A stretch of 64,000 nt of DNA from Defluviitaleaceae bacterium (lineage in GTDB: Bacteria; Bacillota; Clostridia; Lachnospirales; WQUN01), in assembly GCA_009777845.1 (NCBI GenBank), contig WRLD01000001.1, forward strand, positions 120,177-184,176, in the 5' to 3' direction. The notes beneath the pieces are model-generated. The model searched no databases. It saw nothing but the letters and a program-made list of their open reading frames with translations, and was not told the DNA's origin. A program made the translations under genes and the position numbers. Below are positions 2,066 through 60,052 of the stretch, one piece after another. Numbering within the stretch: position 1 is the stretch's first letter; every line of letters begins with the position of its first letter.

Positions 2066-2092
2066 ATAATATAGTATGACAGGAGGAACACC

Positions 2093-3079: not shown

Positions 3080-3102
3080 ACTACTGTAACAGGAGGAATA
3101 AC

Positions 3103-5452: not shown

Positions 5453-6493
5453 TCAATCACGCAAGCGTATTACATTCGCGGCTTTACGGCGTTTTGTGTC
5501 GTCCATTTTTGCATAATGCTTTCGCGTGGTGTTTACGTCACTGTGACCCAGCACATTTGCGACAAGGTAAATGTCGCTCGTTTCGGCGTACAGCTGTGTG
5601 CCAAACGTGCTACGTAATTTATGCGGCGAAATATTTTTCAGCCTAGTAACAAGCGAGGCATATTTTTTTACCATTTTCTGGATTTGCCGCGTGGTTATTC
5701 TGCGATTTTGCAGCGAAAGAAAAACCGCGTCCTCATGCCCTTTTTCGGGGAACGCCTCGTCACGCTCGTCCAAATACGCAAAAAGCGCGGCTTCTACCTC
5801 GTCGCCGAAGTACAAAATCATTTCGTCGCCGCCCTTTCGTCTTACACGCAGGCCGTTTGTTTCAAAGTCAATGTCACGCAAATTAAGCCCGACACATTCC
5901 GACACTCTCATGCCAGTTCCAAGCAACAGGGTAATAATCGCCGCGTCCCTAAGCCGCGTTTTTTCGTGGAAAACCTTTTGCCGCTCGGTTAAATTCTCGC
6001 CGCTGTCTATCTCGTCCAACAATCGCGCTATTTCGTTTGTTTCCAGTGTCGTAATCGTTTTTTCGTTCATTTTCGGGAAATCAATCAGCTCCGCAGGGTT
6101 CGCTAGTATTAGTTTCTTCTTATATAAATACTTAAAAAACACGCGCACCGCCGCGAGCTTGCGCGACTTTCCTGCCGCCGCATTCTTTACCGCCGTTTCG
6201 GGGCTTTCCGCAGGCACATAATATGTTAAATATTCCATAAATTCTTCTATGTCGTCCGACTCCACCTCACGCATTTTTTCTACAGTAATCTGCAAAACAG
6301 GCACATAAAAAACTTCCTCCGACAGGAATTTAAAAAAAATACGCAAATCATAAGCGTACCCAAGCCGCGTAAGCGTTGCCGTTTGGTCGCCAAGGCTACG
6401 AAAAAAGCCCGCCGCAAACTGCGGCAGTGTCTTTAACATCTCACGCAGCTTGAGAATGTTTTGGTTGTCTTGGTCTGTGTGGTAGGTACTCAT
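5453..6493 (-). CDS. Tyrosine recombinase, XerC/XerD-like
   Basis: 346 aa. Catalytic blocks are LLLGTGMRVSECVGL, SPHKLRSTFGTQLY and LGHSDVNTTRKHY (R...HxxR...H...Y), preceded by an N-terminal SAM-like domain. Confidence 0.8.
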   Translation of the reverse strand: MSTYHTDQDNQNILKLREMLKTLPQFAAGFFRSLGDQTATLTRLGYAYDLRIFFKFLSEEVFYVPVLQITVEKMREVESDDIEEFMEYLTYYVPAESPETAVKNAAAGKSRKLAAVRVFFKYLYKKKLILANPAELIDFPKMNEKTITTLETNEIARLLDEIDSGENLTERQKVFHEKTRLRDAAIITLLLGTGMRVSECVGLNLRDIDFETNGLRVRRKGGDEMILYFGDEVEAALFAYLDERDEAFPEKGHEDAVFLSLQNRRITTRQIQKMVKKYASLVTRLKNISPHKLRSTFGTQLYAETSDIYLVANVLGHSDVNTTRKHYAKMDDTKRRKAANVIRLRD

Positions 6494-6809: not shown

Positions 6810-6861
6810 ACACGAAACGTAAATTAAAATATTGCGTTTGTTGTGGGGATTTGCAGGTTTT

Positions 6862-6973
6862 TGTAGGGGACGGATTTATCCGTCCCGAGGTATTAACGCT
6901 CGTCAATTCGGGCAGGCAACGTCTATTAACGCAGAGCGAGGTAATCTCGGGACGGATAAATCCGTCCCCTACA
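6862..6973. repeat. Family C palindromic element, copy C1 (112 bp)
   Basis: TGTAGGGGACGGATTTATCCGTCCCGAG...CTCGGGACGGATAAATCCGTCCCCTACA. Each end is a 9-bp-arm hairpin, and the two ends are inverted repeats of each other. Confidence 0.85.
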
Positions 6974-7130: not shown

Positions 7131-7155
7131 TATCAACGGACACGGTAACGGTTTT

Positions 7156-7268
7156 TGTAGGGGACGGATTTATCCGTCCCGAGATTACCTCGCTCTGCGT
7201 TAATGGACGTTACTCGTCCCGAATTGACGAACGTGCGTACCTCGGGACGGATAAATCCGTCCCCTACA
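7156..7268. repeat. Family C palindromic element, copy C2 (inverted relative to C1)
   Basis: It has the same ends as C1, and its core is the reverse complement of the C1 core (GAGATTACCTCGCTCTGCGTTAATGGACG...). Confidence 0.85.
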
Positions 7269-16694: not shown

Positions 16695-18902
16695 TTGTAT
16701 GGCGCGTATTTTGACGGTAAATATGTTTTCCCTGTATCTGGCTATCAGACCATAGAATATGACTTTACGGAGCAGAAATTAGAAATAGAGCTAGACTTTG
16801 ACAAGGAGGAATACCGCCCGAGCGAGGAGGTCACGCTAACTATACAAACTGCGGCACAATCGCAGGTTTTAATAAGCGTGGTAGACGAGTCGGCAATCCC
16901 TAACCAATGGCATAATGCCAATTTTATCAGAGAGCTATACCTAAGTTCGAGAAACTATAGATGGCAGAGCAGAAGCAGTCAGTACGCTTCCTATACACAG
17001 CACGATTTTGGCGGCTATGACGGCGGCGCGGAGGGCGGCGGCGGCGACGACGATTACGAGAGCGACCGATTCCGTGACTTTTTCGTGGATAACCCGATTT
17101 TTGAAATAGTAAAAACAGACGAAAACGGCGTAGGACAGCTCACATTTACCTTGCCCGACCAGATTACGTCATGGCGCGTTACTGCCATAGGGCTAACCGA
17201 GGACGGCTTTGCAGGCGATACCAAGGAAAATATTATTTCGTTCTTGGATTTTTACTGCGACCTGCTGTACACGCATGAGTATATCGCAGGTGACGATATA
17301 GCCGCCTTGGCTAGAGTTTACGGCGCGGACGAGGCCGAATTTACGTTTAATGTCTTATCGCAGGACGAAGTGATTTTTACCGATACACAGCAGGGGCGGC
17401 GCGTTGTTTTTAATGCAGGCAAGCTGCCAGTGGGCGAATACAAGGTACAGCTAGTAGCAAAAAGCGGAGAGCTAAGCGATGCGGTAGAGCTTCCGTTTAC
17501 TATAGTAGATTCGGCGTTGATTATTCAAAGCTACGTGTCGGGCGTGGTTTCGCCTGACGGCGATATTACCCTGCCAGAGCTTAATATGCGTGATTTTCCT
17601 GTGCGTATTACGCTAAGCAACGCGAATATACAACCGCTCACAAGCATTTTGTGGGCGGCGGCGTGCAGTCAATCTTCACGCACGGACAATAACGCGGCGG
17701 CGGCATACGCCCAATACTTTTTTACTGGCGAGGACAGCGCGTACAAGGTCGCGCACGCCAGTGACGGCGGGATTCCCGAGCTTATCTATGAAAATTCCGA
17801 CTGGTATTATACGGCGCGCTTTGCGGCGGCGTTTCCCGAATATGTAGAGCGTGAGAAAATTATTAGCTATGTACGGAACGGCATGGTTGACAGCGCAGGC
17901 AGAGCCGCAAGCACCGAAAAGCGCGCCGCTGGCTTGCTTGCTTTGGCGGCGGTGGGCGAGCCTGTTTTGCTTGAAATACAAGAGCTGTTAAGCGAGGCAA
18001 GAAGCACGTTAAGGAGCGGCAATTATAACGTGTACTTGTATCTTGCCGCCGCCTTGGTGACAATCGGTGACGATAGCGGCGCGGCAGAAATTATTTCCAA
18101 TTTAGATGCTAATGATGTAAGGCTTGACATGATTGAAACCCGCGACACGCTTATGTTCTATATAAATACCGCCCTTGACCCACAAGCGGCATGGGAATAC
18201 GTGCGAAAGGCTCCGCAAAACAAAATTGTAAGCGACATAGCCGAGCGAGTTAATTTTGTACGGCGTATACAGCTCATGGACGGCACAATTTCCGAGGTAG
18301 AATACACCCTAGACGGCGTACGGCACAGCCTGCGGCTAGAAAACGACCGCATACAGCAGCTGCATATATCCGCCTTCAGCACGCTGTGCGTTGTCTGCGC
18401 CCTATCGAACTACGGCAACCAGTATTTGCATATATCCAAGGAGCAGTTTGACGCGCTCGACCTAGTAGCCGTAAAGGGCGAAACTGAGTATTCAATCGAG
18501 TTTTACAGCTCGGACGGCTCGAACTGGAACGAAGCCGACAGAAACGTAAGCATAACGCGCGAAATAGAACACGAAAACGGCATGGAGCGTATTACGTTTA
18601 CTGTAACCGCGGACAGAGAGCGTACCTCGTTCTCCAGCTTTGTAATTTACGACCGTGTGCCAAGCAATATGCGCTTTATGTCCGCACGCCACCCATTGGG
18701 CGGCAGGCACGCATGGACGAACGTACGCCATATACAACGCCAGCTAGTAGAAATACGCTTTTGCCTTTGCTCGTACTGCGCCTATAGCCGTACTGTTTCG
18801 TACTACGCAAATAAGCTGTTTGATGCCGATATGGCGGACGGTGTGGCGTATGTGACTAATGGTCGGGTTTGGGGTCATTCGTGGGGGAGGACGGGGGCAT
18901 AG
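16695..18902 (+). CDS. Alpha-2-macroglobulin-like large surface protein, C-terminal fragment
   Basis: This is the +1 frame relative to the upstream fragment, and it is open from 16662. FRDFFVDNPIFEIVKTDENGVGQLTFTLPDQITSWRVTAIGLTEDGF is the classic A2M-family block. I saw no CxEQ thioester motif. Confidence 0.6.
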   Translation: MYGAYFDGKYVFPVSGYQTIEYDFTEQKLEIELDFDKEEYRPSEEVTLTIQTAAQSQVLISVVDESAIPNQWHNANFIRELYLSSRNYRWQSRSSQYASYTQHDFGGYDGGAEGGGGDDDYESDRFRDFFVDNPIFEIVKTDENGVGQLTFTLPDQITSWRVTAIGLTEDGFAGDTKENIISFLDFYCDLLYTHEYIAGDDIAALARVYGADEAEFTFNVLSQDEVIFTDTQQGRRVVFNAGKLPVGEYKVQLVAKSGELSDAVELPFTIVDSALIIQSYVSGVVSPDGDITLPELNMRDFPVRITLSNANIQPLTSILWAAACSQSSRTDNNAAAAYAQYFFTGEDSAYKVAHASDGGIPELIYENSDWYYTARFAAAFPEYVEREKIISYVRNGMVDSAGRAASTEKRAAGLLALAAVGEPVLLEIQELLSEARSTLRSGNYNVYLYLAAALVTIGDDSGAAEIISNLDANDVRLDMIETRDTLMFYINTALDPQAAWEYVRKAPQNKIVSDIAERVNFVRRIQLMDGTISEVEYTLDGVRHSLRLENDRIQQLHISAFSTLCVVCALSNYGNQYLHISKEQFDALDLVAVKGETEYSIEFYSSDGSNWNEADRNVSITREIEHENGMERITFTVTADRERTSFSSFVIYDRVPSNMRFMSARHPLGGRHAWTNVRHIQRQLVEIRFCLCSYCAYSRTVSYYANKLFDADMADGVAYVTNGRVWGHSWGRTGA

Positions 18903-18957
18903 GGGGCGTTGCCCCTTTTCACCGCTGTACTTTGGTGGGAATGTCGTCACGAGCCTT
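18902..18957 (+). repeat. Family D element, copy D1 (short form)
   Basis: GGGGGCGTTGCCCCTTTTCACCGCTGTACTTTGGTGGGAATGTCGTCACGAGCCTTT starts at the last base of the TAG stop of the A2M-like gene. Confidence 0.7.
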
Positions 18958-18984
18958 TATAGATTCGCGGGGGATTTAAAGGCA

Positions 18985-19094
18985 ATGGAACGCGGATTTA
19001 CACGGATTTACGCGGATTGGCTCGTGCGAAAACATTTCACGGATTTCCCACGAACGAATCCGCGTAATCTGCGTAAATCCGTTAAATCCGTGTT
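18985..19094. repeat. Family A short element (ATGGAACGCGG left end, AAATCCGTGTTT right end)
   Basis: ATGGAACGCGGATTTACACGGATTTACGCGGATTGGCTCGTGCG...GAATCCGCGTAATCTGCGTAAATCCGTTAAATCCGTGTTT. Confidence 0.65.
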
Positions 19095-19184
19095 TAAATA
19101 TACCTTTTTTTCGCTTATATTTCTTCCGTGCCTCGCTCCCTCTGTGGGAAAATATTCCTGCCTGTCCCGCAATTCGCAAGGTTT

Positions 19185-19297
19185 TGTAGGGGACGGATTT
19201 ATCCGTCCCGAGGTATGCACGCTCGTCAATTCGGGCAGGGTAACGTCAATTAAAATAGAGCGAGGTAATCTCGGGACGGATAAATCCGTCCCCTACA
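19185..19297. repeat. Family C element, copy C3
   Basis: TGTAGGGGACGGATTTATCCGTCCCGAGGTATGCACGCTCGTCAATTCGGGCAGGG...CTCGGGACGGATAAATCCGTCCCCTACA. Confidence 0.85.
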
Positions 19298-19344
19298 AGT
19301 AGCCGTCACTAAGCCTTGAGAGATTGGCAGGTTTTTTAAAGGCA

Positions 19345-19458
19345 ATGGAACGCGGATTTACACGGATTACGCGGATTTTGTCTGCGTAAATTACCAAACG
19401 GCGATATATTTTCCCACGAGCCAATCCGCAAAATCCGCGTAAATCCGTTAAATCCGTG
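19345..19458. repeat. Family A short element
   Basis: ATGGAACGCGGATTTACACGGATTACGCGGATTTTGTCTGCGTAAATTACCAAACGGCG...CCAATCCGCAAAATCCGCGTAAATCCGTTAAATCCGTG. Confidence 0.65.
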
Positions 19459-19665: not shown

Positions 19666-19680
19666 GGCATCACTATATTT

Positions 19681-19793
19681 TGTAGGGGACGGATTTATCC
19701 GTCCCGAGGTATGCACGCTCTATAATTCGGGGCAGGTAACGTCAATTAAAGTAAAGCGAGGTAATCTCGGGACGGATAAATCCGTCCCCTACA
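19681..19793. repeat. Family C element, copy C4
   Basis: Same ends as C1-C3. Confidence 0.85.
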
Positions 19794-19916
19794 GGTAGCC
19801 GTTACGAAGCCTTGAGAGTTTGGCGGATTTTTTAAAGGCAATTTCCATAAACAACAATCCACGCACTTTTAAATTACACTTGCGGGAATTTTATTTTATA
19901 TTAAAATAGGTACATA

Positions 19917-22200: not shown

Positions 22201-23106
22201 GTGAGTATGCTACAACTTATAACACTAATTACAATCCTCTTTTTATCACCCCCTCCGCTACCCCCCCCACAAGACTTCGCCGACCTCCTGCACGAAGCCC
22301 CAAAAAACGCGGAAGCACGGACAGAACCACGCCACGCCTTCAACCACATCTCCCCCGAGCGTTTCCTATCGTCAGTACAAAACGCGCGTGCCTACGAAAT
22401 AACCGACCATATCGCGGCTGGGGTAGTACCGCACCACGATACGGCGGCGGCAATGATTAGCGGCTTTTTTGCACAGGCGGCGCGGTTTGAGTACGACACG
22501 GTTATTATTCTCGCGCCAAACCACGAAAACAACGCCGCTATAGTGACCTCGTACCGCGATTGGGAAATCGGCGTTTTTGCACACCGCGAATTTGCGGCGG
22601 ACTTGCTCGCGGCGCGTGTCGGCGCGGAAATCGACCACGAATATGTAGAGCGCGACCATTCCGCCGCTATTTTGATGCCGTATATCGAGCATTATTTGCC
22701 GCACACAAAAGTCGCGCCTGTTTTGCTTGGGCGTTCCTTGGGCTTTGACGGCACTCTGCGTTTTTATGATTGGCTAAAAAATTGGGTCAGCGAAAGCGGC
22801 GAAAGCGTTTTGCTCGTGGCTTCCGTTGACTTTTCTCATTTTTTAGACGTGCCTAATGCGGCGGAGCATGATAGAATAACGTGGGAAGCAATTCTTGCGC
22901 GTGATTATTTGAAAATACACGCCATGAACAGTAGCTTTTTGGATTCGGCGGCGGCGATGATTGTTTGGTTAAACTATCTGCACGATTTGGGAATAGAGCC
23001 GCGCCTAATCGACCGCAAAAGCTCCGCGGATTTTGTCGCGGGCTTGGAACAGGTAACTACTTACAAGGTAATTGTCGGAGGGGCTTTGCCCCTTTTCTCC
23101 GACTGA
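22201..23106 (+). CDS. MEMO1 / AmmeMemoRadiSam-system-protein-B-like protein with an N-terminal TM segment
   Basis: AAGVVPHHDTAAAMISGFF...VIILAPNHEN...ERDHSAAILMPYIEHY...LLVASVDFSHFL follows the Memo-like metal-site pattern. The final GALPLFSD-stop is encoded by repeat D2. Confidence 0.45.
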   Translation: MSMLQLITLITILFLSPPPLPPPQDFADLLHEAPKNAEARTEPRHAFNHISPERFLSSVQNARAYEITDHIAAGVVPHHDTAAAMISGFFAQAARFEYDTVIILAPNHENNAAIVTSYRDWEIGVFAHREFAADLLAARVGAEIDHEYVERDHSAAILMPYIEHYLPHTKVAPVLLGRSLGFDGTLRFYDWLKNWVSESGESVLLVASVDFSHFLDVPNAAEHDRITWEAILARDYLKIHAMNSSFLDSAAAMIVWLNYLHDLGIEPRLIDRKSSADFVAGLEQVTTYKVIVGGALPLFSD

Positions 23107-23170
23107 TGTTGTTGATGTTTTGCGTTACACGCAAAACACCAACTTGGTGGGAATGTCGCCTCGAAGCCTT
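23080..23170 (+). repeat. Family D element, copy D2 (long form with internal 15-bp-stem hairpin)
   Basis: GGGGCTTTGCCCCTTTTCTCCGACTGATGTTGTTGATGTTTTGCGTTACACGCAAAACACCAACTTGGTGGGAATGTCGCCTCGAAGCCTT. It is ~90% identical by eye to 34776-34865. Confidence 0.8.
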
Positions 23171-23199
23171 AACAGCACATAAAAAAAGGGGAGTACGCG

Positions 23200-30460: not shown

Positions 30461-30634
30461 TGTAGGGGACGGACAAGCAGGCAGTAAATATGTAGGGGAC
30501 GGACAAGCAGGCAGTAAATATGTAGGGGACGGATTTATCCGTCCCGAGATTACCTCGCTCTGCGTTAATGGACGTTATCCTCCCCCGAATTGACGAACGT
30601 GCATACCTCGGGACGGATAAATCCGTCCCCTACA
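30461..30634. repeat. Family C element, copy C5 (30521-30634), preceded by two 30-bp tandem copies of a variant left end
   Basis: TGTAGGGGACGGACAAGCAGGCAGTAAATA occurs twice, followed by a complete C element. Confidence 0.8.
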
Positions 30635-30747
30635 AAAACCCATGAAAATCCGCGTAAATCCATATATAATATAACGCAGATAAAATCCGCAAAATCCGCG
30701 AAAATCCGTTAAATCCGTGTGAAGCCCTTGAATCCGCGTTTCATTGT

Positions 30748-34196: not shown

Positions 34197-35441
34197 GTGA
34201 TTTATATTATTGCGGAAATTTTAACCGTAGGCACGGAAATTCTTTTGGGTAATATAGTAAATTCCAACGCGGCGTTCTTGTCGCGGGAATTGGCGGCGCT
34301 TGGCGTGGCGGTGTATACGCACACTGCCGTGGGCGACAACCACGAACGCCTCGCCGCCGCGCTCGAACACGCTTTCGGCAAGGCAGACATGGTAATAACT
34401 ACTGGCGGCCTTGGGCCTACGCAGGACGATATTACGCAGGAGGTAGCGGAGCGGTTTTTCGGCGAGGCCGCGCGGACGGAGCTACCGAACCATCACGGCA
34501 CTGCGGCAGGGCTTGTATACACCAGAGCGGACGGCAAAATTCTAATGATGTTCCCTGGCCCGCCCCACGAGCTACAGCCTATGTTTTTGGGCTATGCCGC
34601 CGATTTTTTGCGGCAAAAAACAGGGCGCGTGTTTGTTTCGCGTACGCTTAAAATAATCGGTAGGGGCGAGTTGGAAGTAGAAACGATGTTGCGTGACTTG
34701 ATTGATACGCAGACGAATCCTACTATTGCGCCTTATGCTAAGGTTGGTGAGGTGCATATACGCTTAACCGCCTCAGGGGCATTGCCCCTTTCCTCCGACT
34801 GCTCGGTTGATGTTTTGCGTGAAACGCAAAACATCAACTTGGTGGGAATGTCGCCTCGAAGCCTTGACAGCTCACTATCACATCAAGAGGCAGACAGCCT
34901 AATTTCGCCCATAGCGGACGAGATTTACAGGCGGCTAGGTGTGCAGGTTTACGCCGAGGACGACACAAGCCTTGCGGAAACGGTTTTGAACCTATTAAGG
35001 GAACAGGGGCTTACTCTCGCGGTAGCGGAATCCTGCACTGGCGGACTTGTTGCTTCGGAGCTAGTGTCTGTTTCGGGCTGTTCCGCTGTGTTCCGCGAGG
35101 GCTTCGTCACTTATTCCAACGAGGCGAAAATAGAACGGCTTGGCATATGTAAAGACCTGCTCGCGCGGCACGGCGCGGTGAGTGCGGAGGTCGCCATGGA
35201 AATGGCAAAAAACGCCGCCGAAAAAAGCGGTGCGTGCGTAGGGCTTTCCACTACAGGAATAGCAGGGCCTGAGGGCGGCTCGGCGGAAAAGCCCGTAGGC
35301 TTGGTTTATATGGGGCTGTATGTGAATGGAGAATTGACGAGCGAGAAGCATAATTTTAAAGGCTCGCGTAATGCCGTTCGTACACGCGCTATGGTGTTTG
35401 CGTTGGATTTTTTGAGGAGAGGGCTATTGTCTGATGTATAA
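34197..35441 (+). CDS. cinA: CinA (MoCF-binding domain + PncC nicotinamide-nucleotide amidase domain) carrying an in-frame family D insertion
   Basis: The blocks are AEILTVGTEILLGNIVNSNAAFLS, TTGGLGPTQDDIT and LAVAESCTGGLVAS. Residues GALPLSSDCSVDVLRETQNINLVGMSPRSL are encoded by repeat D3. Confidence 0.8.
   Translation: MIYIIAEILTVGTEILLGNIVNSNAAFLSRELAALGVAVYTHTAVGDNHERLAAALEHAFGKADMVITTGGLGPTQDDITQEVAERFFGEAARTELPNHHGTAAGLVYTRADGKILMMFPGPPHELQPMFLGYAADFLRQKTGRVFVSRTLKIIGRGELEVETMLRDLIDTQTNPTIAPYAKVGEVHIRLTASGALPLSSDCSVDVLRETQNINLVGMSPRSLDSSLSHQEADSLISPIADEIYRRLGVQVYAEDDTSLAETVLNLLREQGLTLAVAESCTGGLVASELVSVSGCSAVFREGFVTYSNEAKIERLGICKDLLARHGAVSAEVAMEMAKNAAEKSGACVGLSTTGIAGPEGGSAEKPVGLVYMGLYVNGELTSEKHNFKGSRNAVRTRAMVFALDFLRRGLLSDV
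34776..34865 (+). repeat. Family D element, copy D3 (long form, 90 bp, in frame inside cinA)
   Basis: GGGGCATTGCCCCTTTCCTCCGACTGCTCGGTTGATGTTTTGCGTGAAACGCAAAACATCAACTTGGTGGGAATGTCGCCTCGAAGCCTT. It contains a perfect 15-bp internal stem. Confidence 0.8.
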
Positions 35442-42050: not shown

Positions 42051-43223
42051 ATGGCACAAAATGCTTTAACCTTCCTTTCGGTTTCGCTTACTATGTCCGT
42101 TTTAATTCTGTTCGTATCGGTGCTTAGTATGCTGTCGTTCCGCTGGTTTCAGCCAAAGCATAGGTACGCCGTTTGGCTAGTTGTGCTTGTGGGCTTTCTT
42201 GTTCCGCTTCGCCCTGTGTGGGGCGATGGGCTGTTTAATATTCCTGTTTTTGCCATTTCACAGGAAAGCTCCGCGCTAGTCACAATATGGGCGGTCGCGG
42301 CGTTTGCGATTTTTGCGTACCATTCATGGCGGTATCTTCATTTTAAGAGAATTGTCAAGCGTTGGGGCAAGCCAGTCACAGACGAGCAGGCACTCGCCCT
42401 GTATAACGCCATAAAAAAGGAAAAAGGGCTGGAAAACAAGGAAATAAAGCTAATTGAGCTAGAATTTGTTTCCACGTCTATGCTTACAGGCTTTTTCAAG
42501 CCAGTTATTATTTTACCTGCCAAGCAGTTTTTGAACACCGAGCTGGAAATGATTTTCAGACACGAATTGATACATTATAAGCGCGGCGATTTGTATGTAA
42601 AGCTGCTGTCGGTCGCCGCGGTCGCCATTCATTGGTTCAATCCGATTGCGTACTGGCTAAACAGCACGCTGCAAACCGAATGTGAAACATCATGTGACGA
42701 AGCCGTTTTGCAGGACATTGGCGAGGAAAACAGGCTGTATTATGCCGAGCTAATAGTAGAAATGGTGGGCAAGAAAAAAAGCTCTACGCTTTTTTCCACC
42801 TGCTTCTACGGCGGTAAGCGAAGCCTAAAACGGCGTTTGGACTGCATTTTGGAAACCTCAAAAAAGCTAAAAAAGCCTGCTTATGCCGCGTTAGTGATTA
42901 TTATTATGTTTTCTGCGTTATCTGGCTCGGTTTTTGCGTTTTCTGCCATTAGCCCAGCCATAACGCCTGCGTACAGCTACGACCTAACCGACCGCAAGGT
43001 CACGCCGCTAAATCCGCCTATAAATAGCCTTACGGCGGCGGAAATAGCCATGGCGGCGGTGTCTGCACTGGAAGAACACGGCGTGCTTGACGAGGTTGAC
43101 CTTACCTTTAAGGGCGGACAATGGGTCTGGGAGGTAGAAGTAGACTTTGAATCCGACCTCGAAGCAGAGGTTAGGCTTGATATTGTTACAGGGGAAGTAA
43201 TTTCCATTAAATGGGACGACTAG
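42051..43223 (+). CDS. BlaR1-type M56 peptidase signal transducer lacking a PBP sensor domain (PepSY-like C-terminus)
   Basis: It has TM helices and the zinc site FRHELIHYKRGD (HExxH). At 390 aa it is too short for a transpeptidase-like sensor. The C-terminus is ...EVDLTFKGGQWVWEVEVDF...VRLDIVTGEVISIKWDD. Confidence 0.75.
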   Translation: MAQNALTFLSVSLTMSVLILFVSVLSMLSFRWFQPKHRYAVWLVVLVGFLVPLRPVWGDGLFNIPVFAISQESSALVTIWAVAAFAIFAYHSWRYLHFKRIVKRWGKPVTDEQALALYNAIKKEKGLENKEIKLIELEFVSTSMLTGFFKPVIILPAKQFLNTELEMIFRHELIHYKRGDLYVKLLSVAAVAIHWFNPIAYWLNSTLQTECETSCDEAVLQDIGEENRLYYAELIVEMVGKKKSSTLFSTCFYGGKRSLKRRLDCILETSKKLKKPAYAALVIIIMFSALSGSVFAFSAISPAITPAYSYDLTDRKVTPLNPPINSLTAAEIAMAAVSALEEHGVLDEVDLTFKGGQWVWEVEVDFESDLEAEVRLDIVTGEVISIKWDD

Positions 43224-43277
43224 GGGGCATTGCCCCTTTTCTACGGCGGAGTGTTGTGGGAATATCGTCCCGCAGAG
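43224..43277 (+). repeat. Family D element, copy D4 (short, divergent 3' half)
   Basis: GGGGCATTGCCCCTTTTCTACGGCGGAGTGTTGTGGGAATATCGTCCCGCAGAG begins immediately after the TAG of the BlaR1-like gene. Confidence 0.65.
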
Positions 43278-52533: not shown

Positions 52534-52583
52534 AACAATCACTTGTTAAACCAACCAATGCCAACAAATTAGTGACGGTTAAT

Positions 52584-52999
52584 TGTAGGGGACGGATTTA
52601 TCCGTCCCGAGGTATGCACGCTCGTCAATTCGAGGACGGATAACGTCCAGTAACACAGAGCGCGGTAATCTCGGGACGGATAAATCCGTCCCCTACAAAA
52701 AACCGCCACCAATCCCAAGTCTTAACCTACTGGCATTTGTAGGGGACGGATTTATCCGTCCCGAGGTATGCACGCTCGTCAATTCGAGGACGGATAACGT
52801 CCAGTAACGCAGAACGCGGTAATCTCGGGACGGATAAATCCGTCCCCTACAAAAAACCGCTACCAAGCCTAAATCTTAACCTACTTGCATTTGTAGGGGA
52901 CGGATTTATCCGTCCCGACCCCCGCACGTTCTGACAGAATTTGCTCGCTCTAAAATGATAAACGTACGCATATCGGGGCGGACAAGTCCGCCCCCTACA
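52584..52999. repeat. Tandem array of three family C units (C6, C7, degenerate C8), period ~154 bp
   Basis: C6 is 52584-52697, C7 is 52738-52851 and C8 is 52892-52999. The ~40-bp spacers are homologous (AAAAAACCGC(C/T)ACCAA..CTTAACCTAC(T)TGCATT). C8 has a different core and a GGGGCGGACAAGTCCGCCCC right hairpin. Confidence 0.8.
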
Positions 53000-53050
53000 A
53001 AAACCTTGCCATTGGCAGTCACACACCAAAAGCAGATTTTTAGAAACATA

Positions 53051-53879: not shown

Positions 53880-55487
53880 CTATCCTCCAACCACCCCATA
53901 AAACCCCAGCTTGGCCGAAAGCTGTCTGTCAAACATCAGCGGGAAGCCCCACGACCGCCAGTTTGTGGCATCGTCTAGCCCCCATAAAGTTACGCGGTCT
54001 ATCACATCGGCGTGCTTCTTAAAAATTTCAAACAAGCTAGAATATAACTCCGATTGTGCTATTTCTAGCTCTGGCGGCATTTTGTGTGATAATTCGACGG
54101 AAAGGGGCAACGCCCCCGTCACCACATCTAGCTCCGTTATACTTACAGATATTCCCAGCTCCGCAAACCGCTCAATCGAAGCCTCCACATCGCTAGGCAT
54201 TGTGTCCAAGCTGTAATGCGCCTGCATACCTACGCCGTGTATGGGTACGCCCTTTTCGAGCAATTCCTGTATCATATAAAAAACCGCTTCCCGCTTGCCT
54301 ACGCCGTCTAGGTTGTAATCGTTGTAAATTAGCCTCGCGCTTGGGTCGGCTTCGTGTGCCGCGCGGAACGCAAGCTCGATATAGTCACTGCCAAGCGCGG
54401 CAAGCCACGGCGTTTGGCGAAGCAGCTCGCGCCAGTTGGCGTGGTCTGCGTTCTCGGGTACATAGCTCGGAAATGCCTCGTTTACTACGTCCCAGGCCAC
54501 GAGCCTGCCCTTGTAATACGTCACGACCTCGCCGATATGTGTCCGCATGTTCTGCAAGGCCTCCTCGGGGCTTATGCCTTCGCGGTTTAGCCACTCGGGC
54601 GACTGCTCGTGCCAGACTAGCGTATGCCCGATTAGGCTCATGCCGTCAAGCGCGTTTACGATTTCGTCGGCCGCGCTAAATGTAAAAATTCCGCGCCTGT
54701 TTTGCAATGCGTCGGGCTTCATGTCGTTTCCTGCGGTTATTGCGTTAAAATGGTGGCGTACAAATTCCAAGCGCGTGCCATGCAAATCTCGCCGCGAAAC
54801 AGCCGTGCCAACCAAAAAATAGTCCTCGAAAACCTCGCAAAGCCGCGGAAGCGAGGCATCAAACGAATAATCAATAGCCATAAGGCTAAAAAACACGTCG
54901 TCGATAAAAAAATCCGTGTCCTTGCCCGCTAGGTTTGTTTCGATATAGACATTAACTGTATCAAAATCATAGAAACTTAATGTGCCGCCAATAAACGACC
55001 ATTCGCCCGCCCGCGCCGTGACGCTTGCGCCGCCGAAGTTACGCCAGAAAGGCTCTCCGTCCTTGATAAACTCCGCCGAAAGCACAAAGCTCGTGTCCTC
55101 GTCCACAGGCATGACCCACATAGAAAACGCGTGTTCCTCAAAGGCAACGGCCTGCTCCGTCACATTAACCGCAATTCCGTTCCACGGCTCGTTTCGCCCC
55201 GTGACCTTCAGCGAAAATTCGCCAGTATGCGAAGCCTCGCTCGTACGCGATAGCTGCTCGAAGCCGCGTGCGAAAAAGCCGTAATCGCCCGATTCAAATG
55301 AAATTATGTCGTGGTTTTGCGGCGTTTCCGTAAAGGCTACGATTGGCTCGGGGGTGGTTTGGGTTTGGGCTTGTTGGTGGAGTTCGGGCTGGGATTCTTG
55401 TTGCGCTTCTAGTTGTGTTTCAAGGGGCATACTATCTGTACACGCAGAAAAGGCTAGTAGCAGGATAAGGATTAGGAACTTTTTCAT
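53880..55487 (-). CDS. GH10 endo-1,4-beta-xylanase lipoprotein with N-terminal CBM4_9/CBM22-like module
   Basis: The lipobox is LLAFSAC. The GH10 blocks are GHTLVWHEQSPEW, WDVVNEA (acid/base) and ITELDV (nucleophile). Confidence 0.85.
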   Translation of the reverse strand: MKKFLILILLLAFSACTDSMPLETQLEAQQESQPELHQQAQTQTTPEPIVAFTETPQNHDIISFESGDYGFFARGFEQLSRTSEASHTGEFSLKVTGRNEPWNGIAVNVTEQAVAFEEHAFSMWVMPVDEDTSFVLSAEFIKDGEPFWRNFGGASVTARAGEWSFIGGTLSFYDFDTVNVYIETNLAGKDTDFFIDDVFFSLMAIDYSFDASLPRLCEVFEDYFLVGTAVSRRDLHGTRLEFVRHHFNAITAGNDMKPDALQNRRGIFTFSAADEIVNALDGMSLIGHTLVWHEQSPEWLNREGISPEEALQNMRTHIGEVVTYYKGRLVAWDVVNEAFPSYVPENADHANWRELLRQTPWLAALGSDYIELAFRAAHEADPSARLIYNDYNLDGVGKREAVFYMIQELLEKGVPIHGVGMQAHYSLDTMPSDVEASIERFAELGISVSITELDVVTGALPLSVELSHKMPPELEIAQSELYSSLFEIFKKHADVIDRVTLWGLDDATNWRSWGFPLMFDRQLSAKLGFYGVVGG

Positions 55488-55857: not shown

Positions 55858-55896
55858 GCCTTTAAAAGAGGAAACGCCCCCCATACCCCCACCCTA

Positions 55897-55954
55897 AAGG
55901 CTTCGAGGCGACATTCCCACCAAGCACCAGTCGGAGAAAAGGGGCAACGCCCCC
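55897..55954 (-). repeat. Family D element, copy D5 (short form, minus strand)
   Basis: The reverse complement is GGGGCGTTGCCCCTTTTCTCCGACTGGTGCTTGGTGGGAATGTCGCCTCGAAGCCTT. It follows the capA-like TGA stop after a G-run. Confidence 0.75.
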
Positions 55955-55959
55955 CCCCC

Positions 55960-57486
55960 TCACTTCCACGGCAAGCTCCCCCAAAGCGGCAGCCCTGGAA
56001 ATTCCTCACGCGTTCTACTTCGCGTTATTTCATATTCGTGTAGCATTTCCCTCAGCGGTTCGCCTGAAAACATATGGGTCACGTCGCGGTGTACCTCCTG
56101 CAAGCGCGAGGTGTACTGGATATAGTCGTCCTGCTCCGCGGTAAGCAACGCTTCTGTCACGGGCAGGACGGTAAACGTCTGCGGCTGTACCCAAATCGGC
56201 GCGTAGGAAGCCGCCGCGATATACGCCGCGCCGTTTTCGTCACGCGCGAGGTCTACGTAAATAATCGCGCTCGTTTCTCGCGGAGCGGTACGCTGTCCCG
56301 ATATAAAGTTGGCGAGCGAATACGCCATAAATCCGCGGCGGGTGCGTTCGCCGTCGTTTACATAAACAAATTCCGCAGGCAAAAGCGTGTGGGGGTGGTG
56401 GTTCAAAACCATGTCCGCGCCCTCGTCCAAGAACAAATGAAGCGTACGCATCCAGTTGACCCAGCGCGTGTCGCTTGTGTCGAAATTGTCCCAGCGATGC
56501 CCCGCCCCGCGGTTCATTGTGCCGTAATATTCTATGCCAATGTGCGGCAAAACGACAATAAAATCGGTGTTTAGCTCGCGTGCGCGCGCCATGCTCGCGC
56601 GAATCATGTCGTAATCAATCGTGGCTTGTTCCACAAGGTCGTGATAGATAATTTTTACCATATAATTATGCTCGCCTAGGTCAATGCCGTTGGTGTGCAT
56701 TGTGAAGCTCAAGACGGCAATCGAAAATCCATTTACTTCCACCACGGCGATTTCGTCGCGCGCCTCGGGCGTGAGGTACGTGCCGGTAAACATCAGCCCC
56801 ACCTCGTCCAAGATTTCCATAGTGGAACGCACGCCTGCCGCGCCCGCGTCAAAGCTGTGGTTGTTGCCCGTAGTCACCATGTCGAAGCCTGCGTTTACGA
56901 GAGCCTCCGCAAACGCCTTGGGCGAGCGGAACAAAGGCCAGCCAGCGTAGCCCTCGCGGACAAGGGTGGTTTCCAAGTTGCCGATTGCGAAGTCTGCCGC
57001 CTGTATGTACGGCGCGATGTAGCGGAATGCGTAGTTGAAGTTGTATTCGTCTTGTGCTTGGGAATGGGCTTGTGCTTCGGTTTGGGCTTGTGCTTGAGAA
57101 TGGGAAACACGAGCCGCATTAAGTTGGTCGGCATGGCACATAATATCGCCCACGAAAGCAAGTCGTGCCGAGGGCATGGGAATTTCGTCCGTGGTGGGGT
57201 TTTCTGATGTGGGTTCGCCTGTGGCGGTGTTCGTTCCGTCCGCAGGTTCGCCTGTGTTGGTATTCATTTCGTCCGTGGCGTGGTTTTCTGATGTTCCGTG
57301 TGCTTCGAGGTTTCCGCGTTCCGATTGCCCCACTCGTTCGTCCCCTGCTTCGGGAACAACAGCCAACACATCTTGAGTGTCACGCCCACGCCCATCAGAA
57401 AAAATAATAGCCGCCAAAATCGCCACAATAAAAAGAGTAGCCACTGAAGCAAACAGCACCCACAAATAATATGTTTTTTTTGACAT
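55960..57486 (-). CDS. CapA-family (PGA_cap metallophosphatase-like) membrane-anchored protein
   Basis: The start is set at the ATG at 57486 (AAGGGGG upstream), and the longer ORF begins inside a repeat. LAFVGDIMCHADQ...GNLETTL...VTTGNNHSFDAG...SIAVLSFT is the CapA pattern. There is a QAQAQTEAQAHSQAQ low-complexity insert. Confidence 0.7.
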   Translation of the reverse strand: MSKKTYYLWVLFASVATLFIVAILAAIIFSDGRGRDTQDVLAVVPEAGDERVGQSERGNLEAHGTSENHATDEMNTNTGEPADGTNTATGEPTSENPTTDEIPMPSARLAFVGDIMCHADQLNAARVSHSQAQAQTEAQAHSQAQDEYNFNYAFRYIAPYIQAADFAIGNLETTLVREGYAGWPLFRSPKAFAEALVNAGFDMVTTGNNHSFDAGAAGVRSTMEILDEVGLMFTGTYLTPEARDEIAVVEVNGFSIAVLSFTMHTNGIDLGEHNYMVKIIYHDLVEQATIDYDMIRASMARARELNTDFIVVLPHIGIEYYGTMNRGAGHRWDNFDTSDTRWVNWMRTLHLFLDEGADMVLNHHPHTLLPAEFVYVNDGERTRRGFMAYSLANFISGQRTAPRETSAIIYVDLARDENGAAYIAAASYAPIWVQPQTFTVLPVTEALLTAEQDDYIQYTSRLQEVHRDVTHMFSGEPLREMLHEYEITRSRTREEFPGLPLWGSLPWK

Positions 57487-57504
57487 GGTAGCCCCCTTGT
57501 GGTT

Positions 57505-57545
57505 GTTTTTTGTATGGGACGGATTTATCCGTCCCATACAAAAAA
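57505..57545. repeat. Core-less family C palindrome (single perfect hairpin)
   Basis: TTTTTTGTATGGGACGGATTTATCCGTCCCATACAAAAAA has ~19-bp arms around TT. Confidence 0.85.
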
Positions 57546-57576
57546 CTTGCAATCATTTTTTACACGGTCGTGTATC

Positions 57577-57688
57577 GTAGGGGACGGATTTATCCGTCCC
57601 GAGATTACCTCGCTCTGCGTTAATGGACGTTACCTGCCCCGAAATGACGAGCGTGCGTATCTCGGGACGGATAAATCCGTCCCCTACA
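57577..57688. repeat. Family C element, copy C10
   Basis: GTAGGGGACGGATTTATCCGTCCCGAGATTACCTCGCTCTGCGTTAATGGACG...CTCGGGACGGATAAATCCGTCCCCTACA. Confidence 0.85.
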
Positions 57689-57907: not shown

Positions 57908-58013
57908 TACGCAGACGTGAAAATCATTCACGGAGCAAACGCCTGCAATTGCCTTTTAATTACGCAGACGTGAAAATCATTCACGGAGCGAACGCCCGCA
58001 ATTGCCTTTTTAT
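57908..58013. repeat. 53-bp tandem duplication (x2) spanning the 3' end of the BspA-like gene
   Basis: TACGCAGACGTGAAAATCATTCACGGAGC(A/G)AACGCC(T/C)GCAATTGCCTTTT.AT appears twice (50/53 identical). Each unit contains the stop codon and last ~10 codons (..KRQLRAFAP) plus a CGTGAA/TTCACG hairpin. Confidence 0.8.
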
Positions 58014-59867
58014 GAAATACCCCCACGCCACTATTGAAGCGGTTAAGAATACAATCATCAACACGGTCAAAGGCGTTCTGTCCCCAACCCCAGTAACAGG
58101 AAAGCAAGTATGAGGATAGCGTCCGCACCATTCACAAAAATACTTCGCCCATATCCATTGCTCGGCGGCGTTTCTGCTGTCATTAGTCCGCAGATAATCC
58201 CACAGCTCGGCAGACGTAAGCGTGTCGTCATTACCCACGGTACGCCAATCGCCGCCGTTTTCCTCGGAAACCTCGGGCAGGGAATTATCGTCACGACTTA
58301 TAAATTTTTCGCCAAAGGTAATGCTTTTTAAGTCGCTCGTACCTAAAAACATCATATCCATACTCATAACATTGCCTGTGTCGAAGCCCGATAAGTCAAG
58401 GGAGGTTAGCCCGCTCGCACCGTAAAACATACCCGACATATCCATAACATTGCCTGTGTCAAAGCCCGACAAGTCAAGGGCGGTTAGACCTCTCGTAGCA
58501 CTAAACATACCCCTCATCCTCGCAACATTGCTTGTGTCAAAGCCCGATACGTCAAGGGTGGTTAGACCGCTCGCACCGCTAAACATACCAAACATATCCG
58601 TAACCTTGCTTGTGTCAAAGCCCGACACATCAAGGGAGGTTAGACCGCTCGCACCGCCAAACATACCATACATACTCGTAACATTGCTTGTGTCAAAGCC
58701 CGACACATCAAGGGTGGTTAGACCGCTCGCACCGCTAAACATACCAAACATATCCGTAACCTTGCTTGTGTCAAAGCCCGACACATCAAGGGAGGTTAGA
58801 CCGCTCGCACCGCCAAACATGTTAACCATATCCATAACCTTGCTTGTGTCAAAGCCCGACACATCAAGGGAGGTTAGACCGCTCGCACCGTAAAACATGT
58901 GATCCATATCCGTAACATTGCTTGTGTTCCAACCAGATACGTCAAGAGCGGTTAAACCGCTCGCGCCTTCAAACATCCTCTCCATATTCGTAACCTTGCT
59001 TGTGTCAAAGCCTAACAAGTCAAGGGTGGTTAGACCGCTTGCACCGAAAAACATGTTACTCATATTCGTAACATTGCTTGTGTCGAAGTCTGACACATCA
59101 AGGGTGGTTAGACCGCTCGCACCGCGAAACATCCACGACATATTCGTAACCTTGCTAGTGTCAAAGCCCGACACATCAAGGGTGGTTAGCCCGCTCGCAC
59201 CGTAAAACATACCCGACATATCCATAACATTGCCTGTGTCAAAGCCCGATAAGTCAAGGGTTGTTAATTTATTAGAACTAAACATACGCTCCATATTCGT
59301 AACCTTGCTTGTGTCCCAACCCGATAAGTCAAGGGTGGTTACGCTCAATACATAGTTAAACATGCCTGCCATATTCGTAACATTGCTTGTGTCCCAACCC
59401 GATAAGTCAAGGGTGGTTACGCTCACTACATAGTTAAACATGCCTGCCATATTCGTAACATAGCTTGTGTCAAGAAAGCCCAAGCCCTCAATTTCTGTTA
59501 CATTAAACAAGTAAGAGAATAGGTACATTAGGCTTTCCCCCGCAGTAATCGGGGCAGTGAAGCTAATACGTGTAATGCTGTCTGCGTAATCGCCCCACGG
59601 ACTGTCCCAGTCGGTATTATTGATATACCCACCGCCGACCACTAGCTCCCCGCACTCGAATAACTGCCATTCCGCGCCTGTGCCTAGTGTCGAGTGGTCG
59701 AGGAATTTGTCGTTAGCCGTGACGGAGTGCGGAACGTCACAGGAGCAGGGCGTGCTTGCGTAGACCGCGGTGGTAAGTACCACCACGCAGAGTGCCATAA
59801 GTAATACTAAACCGAATACTTTAACTAATCCTAAGCGTTCTTGAGTTTTTCTAATTTCCATTTTCAT
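57981..59867 (-). CDS. BspA-type leucine-rich-repeat surface protein (DUF285-like repeats) with FPVTG sorting-signal-like C-terminus
   Basis: The start is at ATG 59867 or 59861 (AGAGGGG upstream). It has a signal peptide and about seventeen 26-aa units LDVSGFDTS(K/N)VT.M..MF.GASGLT.. The C-terminus is FPVTG, then a TM helix, then KRQ. Confidence 0.8.
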   Translation of the reverse strand: MKMEIRKTQERLGLVKVFGLVLLMALCVVVLTTAVYASTPCSCDVPHSVTANDKFLDHSTLGTGAEWQLFECGELVVGGGYINNTDWDSPWGDYADSITRISFTAPITAGESLMYLFSYLFNVTEIEGLGFLDTSYVTNMAGMFNYVVSVTTLDLSGWDTSNVTNMAGMFNYVLSVTTLDLSGWDTSKVTNMERMFSSNKLTTLDLSGFDTGNVMDMSGMFYGASGLTTLDVSGFDTSKVTNMSWMFRGASGLTTLDVSDFDTSNVTNMSNMFFGASGLTTLDLLGFDTSKVTNMERMFEGASGLTALDVSGWNTSNVTDMDHMFYGASGLTSLDVSGFDTSKVMDMVNMFGGASGLTSLDVSGFDTSKVTDMFGMFSGASGLTTLDVSGFDTSNVTSMYGMFGGASGLTSLDVSGFDTSKVTDMFGMFSGASGLTTLDVSGFDTSNVARMRGMFSATRGLTALDLSGFDTGNVMDMSGMFYGASGLTSLDLSGFDTGNVMSMDMMFLGTSDLKSITFGEKFISRDDNSLPEVSEENGGDWRTVGNDDTLTSAELWDYLRTNDSRNAAEQWIWAKYFCEWCGRYPHTCFPVTGVGDRTPLTVLMIVFLTASIVAWGYFIKRQLRAFAP

Positions 59868-59884
59868 AACCCCTCTTTTTTTGA

Positions 59885-59923
59885 CTCGCCTTCGGCGATT
59901 TTTCATGTGCGACTTTACACTAT
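59885..59923 (-). promoter_or_regulatory. Conserved hairpin leader motif, copy L3 (upstream of the BspA-like gene)
   Basis: Minus-strand sense reads ATAGTGTAAAGTCGCACATGAAAAATCGCCGAAGGCGAG, then TCAAAAAAAGAGGGGTT and the ATG. Confidence 0.5.
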
Positions 59924-60052
59924 CTATTTTATCGTAAAGCTCCACACAGATTTTACCCCCTCCCACAAAAAAATGCAAACACATAAGAGTTGCCTTTCCA
60001 AGCCCTCTTATTATACAATATCCTATAAAATCTCAAAGGAAGTGCAAACGCG

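Follow-up and report, generated by a model that had tools for sequence, protein, structure and literature searches.

How did a hairpin-rich dispersed repeat come to stand inside the open reading frame of cinA, and was it fitted by selection to be translated there or merely tolerated by its host? We asked this of a stretch of 64,000 nucleotides from a Defluviitaleaceae genome, referred to here as the window, in which an initial annotation made from the letters alone had pointed out the repeat.

A dispersed repeat lies in frame inside cinA

According to the initial annotation, the segment 34776-34865 is about 90% identical to a copy at a gene end (23080-23170) and lies within an uninterrupted CinA reading frame of 414 amino acids, to which it adds the peptide GALPLSSDCSVDVLRETQNINLVGMSPRSL. 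All of this was borne out: the two segments differ by 9 mismatches and one indel of 1 nt (~89% identity), the frame is a single ORF, and the peptide is as given. Moreover, the cinA copy and the copy at 23080 have an identical 31-mer in common, which recurs with 3 mismatches in a third copy on the minus strand (55897-55927), while the number of 31-mer matches expected in the shuffled window was 0. The length of the insert, put at 90 nt, needed correction, since an alignment of 17 copies of the repeat, called family D, carries the full unit through GACAGC, so that the copy in cinA covers 34776-34871, that is, 96 nt or 32 codons. The GC hairpin and the perfect 15-bp stem that had been described in the element are both present, the stem being formed by 15 perfect pairs between 34806-34820 and 34824-34838. 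One tryptic peptide, ETQNINLVGMSPR, falls entirely inside the CinA insert. The coordinates of the element, of its parts and of the other family D copies are collected in Table 1.

Table 1. The cinA element, its host gene and further family D copies (window positions, except where a locus on another contig is named)
Feature	Location	Strand	Frame or host	Remark
Long-form family D element	34776-34871	+	in frame, CinA residues 194-225	encodes GALPLSSDCSVDVLRETQNINLVGMSPRSLDS
Head hairpin GGGGC-ATT-GCCCC, followed by TTTCCTCC	34776-34788	+		kept in 16/17 copies
Hairpin module of 33 nt, 15-nt perfect arms and 3-nt loop	34806-34838	+		distinguishes long from short form; confined to family D copies
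Conserved 3' tail TTGGTGGGAATGTCGCCTCGAAGCCTTGACAGC, containing TTGACA	34839-34871	+		from the family alignment; conservation is partly by construction, the tail having served as search pattern
cinA ORF, insertion host	34197-35441	+	414 aa	MoCF_biosynth 7-139, CinA_KH 148-195 (truncated), CinA/PncC 257-408
Long-form copy D2	23080-23176	+	gene end	97 nt, 1-nt indel
Short-form copy	55893-55953	-		G-run joins it to the TGA of the PGA_cap ORF 55960-57552
Diverged short-form copy	18903-18962	+		directly after the TAG of ORF 16695-18902 (alpha-2-macroglobulin-like)
Truncated, diverged short-form copy	43224-43275	+		directly after the TAG of ORF 42051-43223 (Peptidase_M56)
Possible family D head fragment, 26 nt	54092-54117	-	in a GH10 xylanase ORF, same frame (GALPLSVE)	weak evidence
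Copy in Spore_permease	L002, 5817-5879		same frame	GAQPLSSDCPMVGMSPRSLDT
Copy in PDZ/Radical_SAM_2/DUF512 protein	L005, between PDZ (5-54) and radical-SAM domain (120-262)		same frame	17 orthologs lack the insert
Copy in TilS	P0123, between PP-loop and substrate-binding domains		same frame	
Copy in YhhN membrane protein	P0122		same frame	
Copy in unnamed protein	P0121		same frame	ENA sample as for the cinA contig
Copy in a second CinA	P0015, different site, PncC loop GIAG|...|KPVGLVY		same frame	
Copy in carboxynorspermidine decarboxylase			antisense	29 extra residues against the contiguous PDB 9eaf

The insert interrupts a CinA that is otherwise conserved

The host protein shows all three CinA domains in Pfam, with E-values as follows (MoCF_biosynth 6e-32, CinA_KH 3e-20, CinA/PncC 5e-55), and its best homologs are the CinA proteins of Defluviitaleaceae MAGs. 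In the ortholog alignment, the conserved residues A192 and P238 are separated by 45 residues in the window protein, whereas 116 of 118 orthologs have 13 there; the difference is exactly 32 amino acids, and the lineage-specific insert that such an alignment had been expected to reveal is thereby confirmed. The alignment to the solved structure of Streptococcus mutans CinA (PDB 6mr3) breaks at the position of the insert. On one point the placement had to be revised: the insert had been assigned to an interdomain linker, but it splits the CinA_KH match, which ends at model position 47 of 73, and in an AlphaFold2 model it falls between the last beta-strand (185-195) and the long helix (226-250) of the KH-like middle domain, hence in a strand-helix loop and not in a free linker.

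The genome is extremely repeat-rich, which is a risk for any assembler, and the segment might on that account be an assembly artefact; it might also be an ancestral linker of cinA from which the repeats elsewhere were derived. We regard these explanations as exceedingly improbable. An independent MEGAHIT contig (ENA ERZ27257348 k141_197389, locus L006) carries the same insert in cinA with the same junctions, and its sequence agrees with that of the window at all but 4 of 20,921 positions, with no difference falling in cinA, which rules out the misassembly that the initial annotation had considered. In addition, the ORF is in frame, the segment is lacking in the 116 orthologs, and the element stands in other genes on other contigs with different flanks.

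As judged from the alignment, CinA is not decaying in general: 14 orthologs share 131 invariant columns, of which the window protein retains 122, and V317I is the sole change at such columns in its PncC domain. An AlphaFold2 model computed with 119 sequences reached a mean pLDDT of 92.2, and its comparison with full-length Thermus thermophilus CinA (4uux/4cta) gave TM scores of 0.73-0.77; according to this model, the three-domain CinA fold would be preserved with the insert in place. Only the blocks of the insert were poorly determined, with mean pLDDT values of 53 and 52 (~52 over residues 201-220). Thus, of the surface loop that a structure prediction was to look for, the low-confidence loop was found, and the surface position is our inference.

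The window CinA is also short of about 32 residues in its N-terminal domain, and given this absence the constraint on it may have changed; the site of this deletion shows no repeat scar. No empty-site allele at high nucleotide identity was found, since identity to the nearest CinA ortholog is 58-70%, which leaves the precise limits of the insertion, any target duplication and the date of the event loosely constrained.

Family D consists of a short and a long form

Scanning metagenomes with a 23-mer taken from the tail brought up six copies, distributed over five contigs, and a profile built from the copies detected further ones in the window and on additional contigs. Altogether, the window holds five copies and one fragment, and 11 further distinct copies are located on metagenome contigs. 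The contigs that bear them share the other repeat families of the window at 83-97% identity, which indicates that they come from the same or sister organisms, and for one host protein NCBI holds an identical entry, derived from a Defluviitaleaceae MAG.

The short form measures 63 nt and is composed of GGGGC-NNN-GCCCC, the T-rich spacer TTTYCTCCGACTG, six variable bases and GGTGGGAATGTCGCCTCGAAGCCTTRACAGC. The long form, at 96 nt, is the short form plus the 33-nt perfect hairpin with its 15-nt arms, and this hairpin was not detected outside family D copies in the window or the metagenome contigs. Both lengths are multiples of three; five of the six long copies are exactly 96 nt long, and most short copies 63 nt. 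About four of the six frames of the element are open, and the frame GGG GCA TTG CCC is free of stops in nearly all copies, including the non-coding ones. In the alignment, pairing in the two hairpins is preserved in 98.8% of cells, and the count of compensatory changes is one, namely G2/C12 to C/G in the head hairpin of the L012 copy; by reading the sequence we found the same C/G change (GCGGC...GCCGC) in the second L008 copy, whose head is cut off in the alignment.

Searches of Rfam and of the GTDB species genomes were negative. With gathering thresholds for the window as a whole and E <= 10 for the element, Rfam matches were confined to two tRNAs and noise, and an exact 25-mer had 0 matches in 185,579 GTDB species genomes. 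A degenerate two-part pattern had one GTDB match, in a Verrucomicrobiales MAG, which we discarded as a chance hit without hairpin and tail. Within the window, TAGGGGGC at 4057 was considered as a family D copy and rejected. The possible head fragment in the GH10 xylanase gene was found by nhmmer at E = 0.009 and corresponds to 7 extra residues, against PDB 3rdk, just past the ITELD motif.

Copies of family D are translated in unrelated genes

The initial annotation had suggested a search for other coding insertions of the repeat, and this search was productive: besides the window cinA, family D is translated in at least seven other genes (Table 1). Eight of the 17 distinct copies are coding, in seven gene families, and, apart from the window cinA, there are inserts that fall between Pfam domains or between transmembrane segments. 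A dispersed palindromic repeat has thus been inserted in cinA in frame and in a lineage-specific manner, as had been claimed, with 116 of 118 orthologs lacking it and with copies elsewhere, and the parallel drawn with Rickettsia palindromic elements (RPEs) is apt and even stronger than was proposed.

The frame in which the copies are read raised the possibility that selection maintains the encoded peptide as a functional module, for example a flexible linker, a site for a protease or a motif for interactions, and that recombination spread it. Seven of the eight coding copies use one sense frame though about four of six are open; three of these in-frame cases came from a peptide query and are therefore biased toward one frame, yet outside that set four of five coding copies still use it, for which we estimate p ~0.016 if the four open frames are equally likely. 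However, no synonymous bias exists among the copies (by reading, the cinA and L008 copies differ by 3 replacement and 2 silent changes), AlphaFold2 assigns no confident structure to the insert, and the host proteins are unrelated, comprising cytosolic enzymes and membrane permeases. Furthermore, an exhaustive search of 1.84 billion cluster representatives recovered the peptide in only three proteins. Considering these observations, we find a selected peptide module very unlikely. A fourth peptide match in that collection (P0124; 35% identity, 6 stretches) was set aside as a repetitive-protein artefact. A concatenated query of the three peptides returned nothing from an index of 5.8 billion proteins, probably an artefact of the query design, the window CinA itself being in the database.

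We favour, with a probability of roughly 0.8, the explanation that a selfish or neutral dispersed repeat was inserted in frame in cinA and is tolerated there as a loop, much as RPEs are. The element is a small, non-autonomous, hairpin-rich repeat (its short-form tail being described here as GGTGGGAATGTCGCCTCGAAGCCTTGACAGC), which in this Defluviitaleaceae-type genome normally follows a gene in the sense orientation, immediately after its stop codon. In cinA, a long-form copy entered the KH-like domain at the loop that joins its last beta-strand to its C-terminal helix. With modules of 3n length and a stop-free sense frame, the ORF stays open and CinA gains 32 residues, which most likely form a flexible surface loop that the three-domain fold tolerates. 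We infer that the insert is neutral and exposed on the surface; by analogy with the Rickettsia elements, the insertion may have survived by being harmless.

Translatability is a property of the family

Set against D2 by itself, the cinA copy shows exactly three points of difference, all of which had been read as signs of selection for translatability: a length change of 1 nt (90 versus 91 nt in the original delimitation), TGC in place of the in-frame TGA, and TCA in place of TAG at the left junction. That the cinA copy was reshaped in this way is very improbable in the light of the 17 aligned copies, among which the cinA copy is canonical and D2, at 97 nt, the outlier. The base that follows GACTG varies (T, T, G, T, C, A, G), being T, C or G in all copies except D2, so that TGA exists in D2 only and the non-coding copies read TGT or TGG. 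Likewise, the TAG ahead of other copies is the stop codon of long upstream ORFs, and TCA at cinA is the codon of the host residue Ser193, which is nearly invariant in the orthologs. Importantly, four non-coding copies (L001, L002b, L003 and L004) are also 63 nt long and stop-free in the GALPL frame. Since lengths of 3n and an open frame are found in non-coding copies too, translatability belongs to the family and not to the cinA copy; it is a family property combined with a survivorship filter, and not an adaptation of the copy in cinA.

Non-coding copies abut stop codons

The non-coding copies that have a long upstream ORF touch its stop codon, with gaps of 0, 0, -1 and +1 nt; one further non-coding copy is linked to the stop through a G-run of 6. 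D2 itself contains the stop, since the Memo-like ORF 22201-23106 draws its final 8 codons (GALPLFSD) and its TGA from this copy. The frame of the upstream ORF coincides with the open frame of the element in five of seven cases. By our estimate, random insertion into spacers of tens to hundreds of bases would rarely generate this pattern. Targeting next to stops, overlap of gene ends with partial element heads, or a function in termination are all possible causes of the abutment; the tail of ORF 16695-18902 reads GGG GCA TAG, like the head of the element. An enrichment of TAG was considered and dropped: TAG is common in the window (14 of 41 ORFs), and thus 4 TAG among 6 adjacent stops is not significant. 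The stop-abutting copies offer a concrete and testable lead on how repeats choose their sites or survive at them.

Their position at 3' gene ends in the sense orientation, where a 3'-end function is plausible, together with the strong RNA structure predicted for the cinA copy (-41.3 kcal/mol, z = -4.6), could also be taken to mean that the element acts at the RNA level within cinA. It would terminate or pause transcription internally or block RNases, and expression of the MoCF and KH domains would thereby be uncoupled from that of PncC. Against this, a terminator scan of three stretches was negative at the cinA copy, at D2 and at the copy at 18903, where the head hairpin was not called, the U-tract (UUUCCUCC) is short, and the element is also present in single-domain membrane proteins and in antisense, where such a role would make no sense. 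An RNA-level role in cinA is therefore improbable in our view. A promoter scan found nothing at the element, and no -10 box accompanies the TTGACA of the tail.

A wider interpretation, to which we give some chance while considering it unlikely, is that coding genes of termite-gut-type Defluviitaleaceae have been invaded in an RPE-like manner by several palindromic families, and that family D is put to dual use, on the one hand as a stop-placed hairpin that acts on termination, ribosome stalling or the mRNA 3' end, and on the other as an open frame of 3n length that is absorbed as a protein loop within genes. Liang, Rudd and Deutscher are said to have reported in 2015 that REPs no more than 15 nt from a stop codon act so in E. 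coli.

Family D compared with known mobile repeats

We compared family D with the hallmarks of the known classes of small mobile repeats. Terminal inverted repeats, as in MITEs, are not present, the hairpins being internal and the ends not complementary. A target-site duplication of fixed length was not found either, since the flanks differ between copies without a consistent pattern; the sole candidates, identified by reading, are 3-4 nt (TCA/CTCA) at cinA and an imperfect 15-nt repeat at L005. The REP/REPIN type of head was likewise not recovered: a palindrome is present, but the TAG before it is the upstream stop and is absent from coding copies, and the fact that family D copies occur singly, many of them within genes, also argues against this class. 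Nor did the terminator scan call a GC-rich stem with a U-run, the mark of terminator-type repeats such as SPRITE, at the cinA, D2 and 18903 copies. A scan of about 25 window ORFs with Pfam detected no Y1 transposase/RAYT; one gene of the phage-integrase family is located in the window (5456-6493). As guesses at the mode of movement we name recombination between copies and a hairpin-dependent transposition of single strands, of the REP/RAYT type; the latter guess is a reasonable one because GTAG-headed inverted REP doublets fill the same intergenic regions.

Family D resembles REP/BIME/REPIN sequences, including the GTAG-headed SMAG of Stenotrophomonas (PMC3184786), in being a short GC-rich palindrome at 3' gene ends, in its occurrence in mosaic arrays with other repeat modules, and in the TAG that directly precedes the palindrome in four copies. 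It differs from them in that it is single and not arranged as inverted doublets, has a long conserved non-palindromic tail, and is preceded by a TAG that is the stop codon of the host gene and no conserved base of the element; moreover, the definition of REPs places them outside genes. The window also contains classical inverted doublets with GTAG heads.

In-frame fusions are documented for RPE, ERIC/YPAL, pneumococcal BOX/RUP/SPRITE, Coxiella QMITE1 and Anabaena MITEs (PMC10969869, PMC3184786, PMC5896051). With the last four groups family D shares open frames, occasional internal fusions and C-terminal extensions, such as the 8 codons of D2; in those groups, however, coding insertions are exceptional, and most of the elements have terminal inverted repeats and target duplications. 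RPE is the only documented case in which in-frame fusions are frequent. For several RPE families about half of the copies are coding (Ogata et al. 2000, 2002, as summarised in PMC10969869, PMC3184786), and the inserts have been proposed to be selfish or neutral and tolerated (PMC10969869). Like RPE, family D is short, hairpin-forming and dispersed, a large share of its copies stand in frame inside unrelated housekeeping genes, and it encodes a family-specific, conserved peptide, at sites that may be compatible with the fold of the host. Unlike RPE, its units measure 63 and 96 nt, as opposed to about 105-150, its host is a gut bacterium of the class Clostridia and not an obligate intracellular alphaproteobacterium, its non-coding copies abut stop codons, and it has a modular short and long form. 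We have therefore not filed family D as an RPE, from which host and length set it apart; by analogy, it would be a new repeat family that behaves like the Rickettsia palindromic elements. The initial annotation had seen no such elements described for Clostridia-like genomes, and our literature search for Clostridia and Defluviitaleaceae likewise found no description.

The wider phenomenon

That selfish palindromic repeats colonise housekeeping genes in frame is textbook knowledge for Rickettsia; elsewhere this is known mainly from isolated cases. Here, a free-living or gut-associated lineage of Clostridia exhibits it at a comparable rate, with 8 of 17 copies of one family and a second family in addition, which suggests that such colonisation is independent of the reduced genomes of obligate intracellular bacteria. 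The copies also amount to a set of naturally occurring loop insertions in enzymes whose homologs have solved structures (CinA, TilS and carboxynorspermidine decarboxylase), and they flag a risk for annotation and homology searches in these metagenome-assembled genomes.

The second family is represented in the window at 1773-1839, within a decarboxylase-like ORF, where the sequence is 85% identical to a 102-nt in-frame insert of another CinA ortholog. Of the 118 CinA orthologs, 12 have private inserts, placed at a small number of recurrent sites; taken with the second family, these suggest a clade-wide phenomenon.

Insertions and loss in CinA

We found private inserts of at least 10 aa in 12 of the 118 CinA orthologs in alignment A3, and their sites were clustered, with seven cases after consensus column 143-145, three after column 228 and three after columns 251-255. 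Column 228 is the site at which the window's CinA carries its family-D element, a copy of the dispersed hairpin-forming repeat, and the orthologs P0008 and P0011 have inserts that are related to each other (PEAxHSLExG) and unlike family D, yet lie at this very site. In addition, the N-terminal MoCF/COG1058 domain of the window CinA was found to be without about 32 residues: the spacing from F88 to N98 is 9 residues (89-97) versus 40-43 in nearly all orthologs, and comparison with PDB 6mr3 bore out this deficit. The inserted residues offset those lost from the N-terminal domain, so at 414 aa the protein is of normal length. A repeat scar was looked for in the DNA at the deletion, and none was visible.

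CinA orthologs also share a second palindromic repeat family with the window, where it is translated in frame within an Orn/Lys/Arg-decarboxylase-like ORF (734-2062) and encodes the peptide LLSPRQGSVLENLDTALGNGVTPPNQMDNT. The DNA of this repeat matched an in-frame insert in the ortholog P0087, for which a fold of three hairpins is predicted (-46 kcal/mol), and this insert is present in the ortholog P0025 too.

Coordinates of repeat-associated features in the window and in metagenome loci
Feature	Sequence	Position (strand)	Remark
Stop codons at non-coding family-D copies	window	18900-18902, 43221-43223, 55960-55962, 23104-23106	
Stop codon at non-coding family-D copy	L001	1672-1674	
Stop codon at non-coding family-D copy	L002	8391-8393	
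Family-D head match	window	54092-54117 (-)	in GH10 xylanase ORF 53880-55487
N-terminal deletion in cinA	window	34461-34490	
Further CinA-ortholog inserts	L015	3813-3899, 4152-4241	
Second palindromic family	window	1772-1861 (+)	
P0087 insert, 102 nt	L016	10420-10521	85% identity to window 1773-1839, E = 1e-9
Family-D element with direct repeats	L005	5896-6021 (-)	
Second partial head	L011	7290-7315 (-)	
Second, diverged copy	L008	2449-2502 (+)	
Inverted GTAG-headed doublets	window	19183-19297, 19679-19793, 6860-6973, 7154-7268	
Inverted GTAG-headed doublets	window	30519-30640, 52582-53013, 57574-57688	
Intergenic mosaics	window	18940-19010, 19300-19370, 19790-19840	
Intergenic mosaic	L001	1728-1775	
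Tandem array	window	58256-59497 (-)	in ORF 57984-59984
Na_Ca_ex gene pair	window	2067-4056	

Family-D copies within and at the ends of genes

Several of the coding family-D insertions are compound. Comparison of the flanks in a PDZ/Radical_SAM_2 gene (L005) revealed an imperfect 15-nt direct repeat on both sides of the element, CCTGCACACGCAGAG and CCCGTACACGCGGAG, encoding PAHAE and PVHAE. Behind the antisense copy at L011 lies a second partial head (GGGCGTTGCCC), and at L008 a second copy with the compensatory hairpin GCGGC-TTC-GCCGC follows the first. In the GH10 xylanase gene, 26 nt match the head of family D (GGGGGCGTTGCCCCTTTCCGTCGAAT) and read GALPLSVE in the family's usual frame. At this point the protein has 7 residues that PDB 3rdk lacks; they follow immediately on ITELD, which we take to be the catalytic-nucleophile motif of GH10, and the segment may be a remnant of a family-D element.

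Non-coding copies adjoin the stop codon of the gene upstream at a gap of -1 to +1 nt, are linked to it by a G-run bridge, or contain it; in five of seven cases the frame of the upstream gene is the open frame of family D.

Intergenic mosaics and other repeats

Many copies of a GTAG-headed palindrome occur in the window as inverted doublets (TTGTAGGGGACGGATTTATCCGTCCC ... GGGACGGATAAATCCGTCCCCTACAA), which look like classical REPIN/REP doublets; doublets of this kind generally point to the presence of a RAYT transposase in the genome. Intergenic regions have a mosaic structure: behind family-D copies and REP doublets alike comes AAGCCTTGA(C/G)AG-like sequence, and next a module, TTTAAAGGCAATGGAACGCGGATTT..., that includes runs of CGGATTT units. 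Stretches of about 1 kb are built up in this BIME-like way.

A DUF285/leucine-rich-repeat protein gene harbours about 15 tandem units, each of 78 nt, which are ordinary protein repeats with no relation to family-D insertion. Two adjacent sodium/calcium exchanger (Na_Ca_ex) genes share 84-89% DNA identity along 600 nt or more, a sign that the pair arose by a recent tandem gene duplication.
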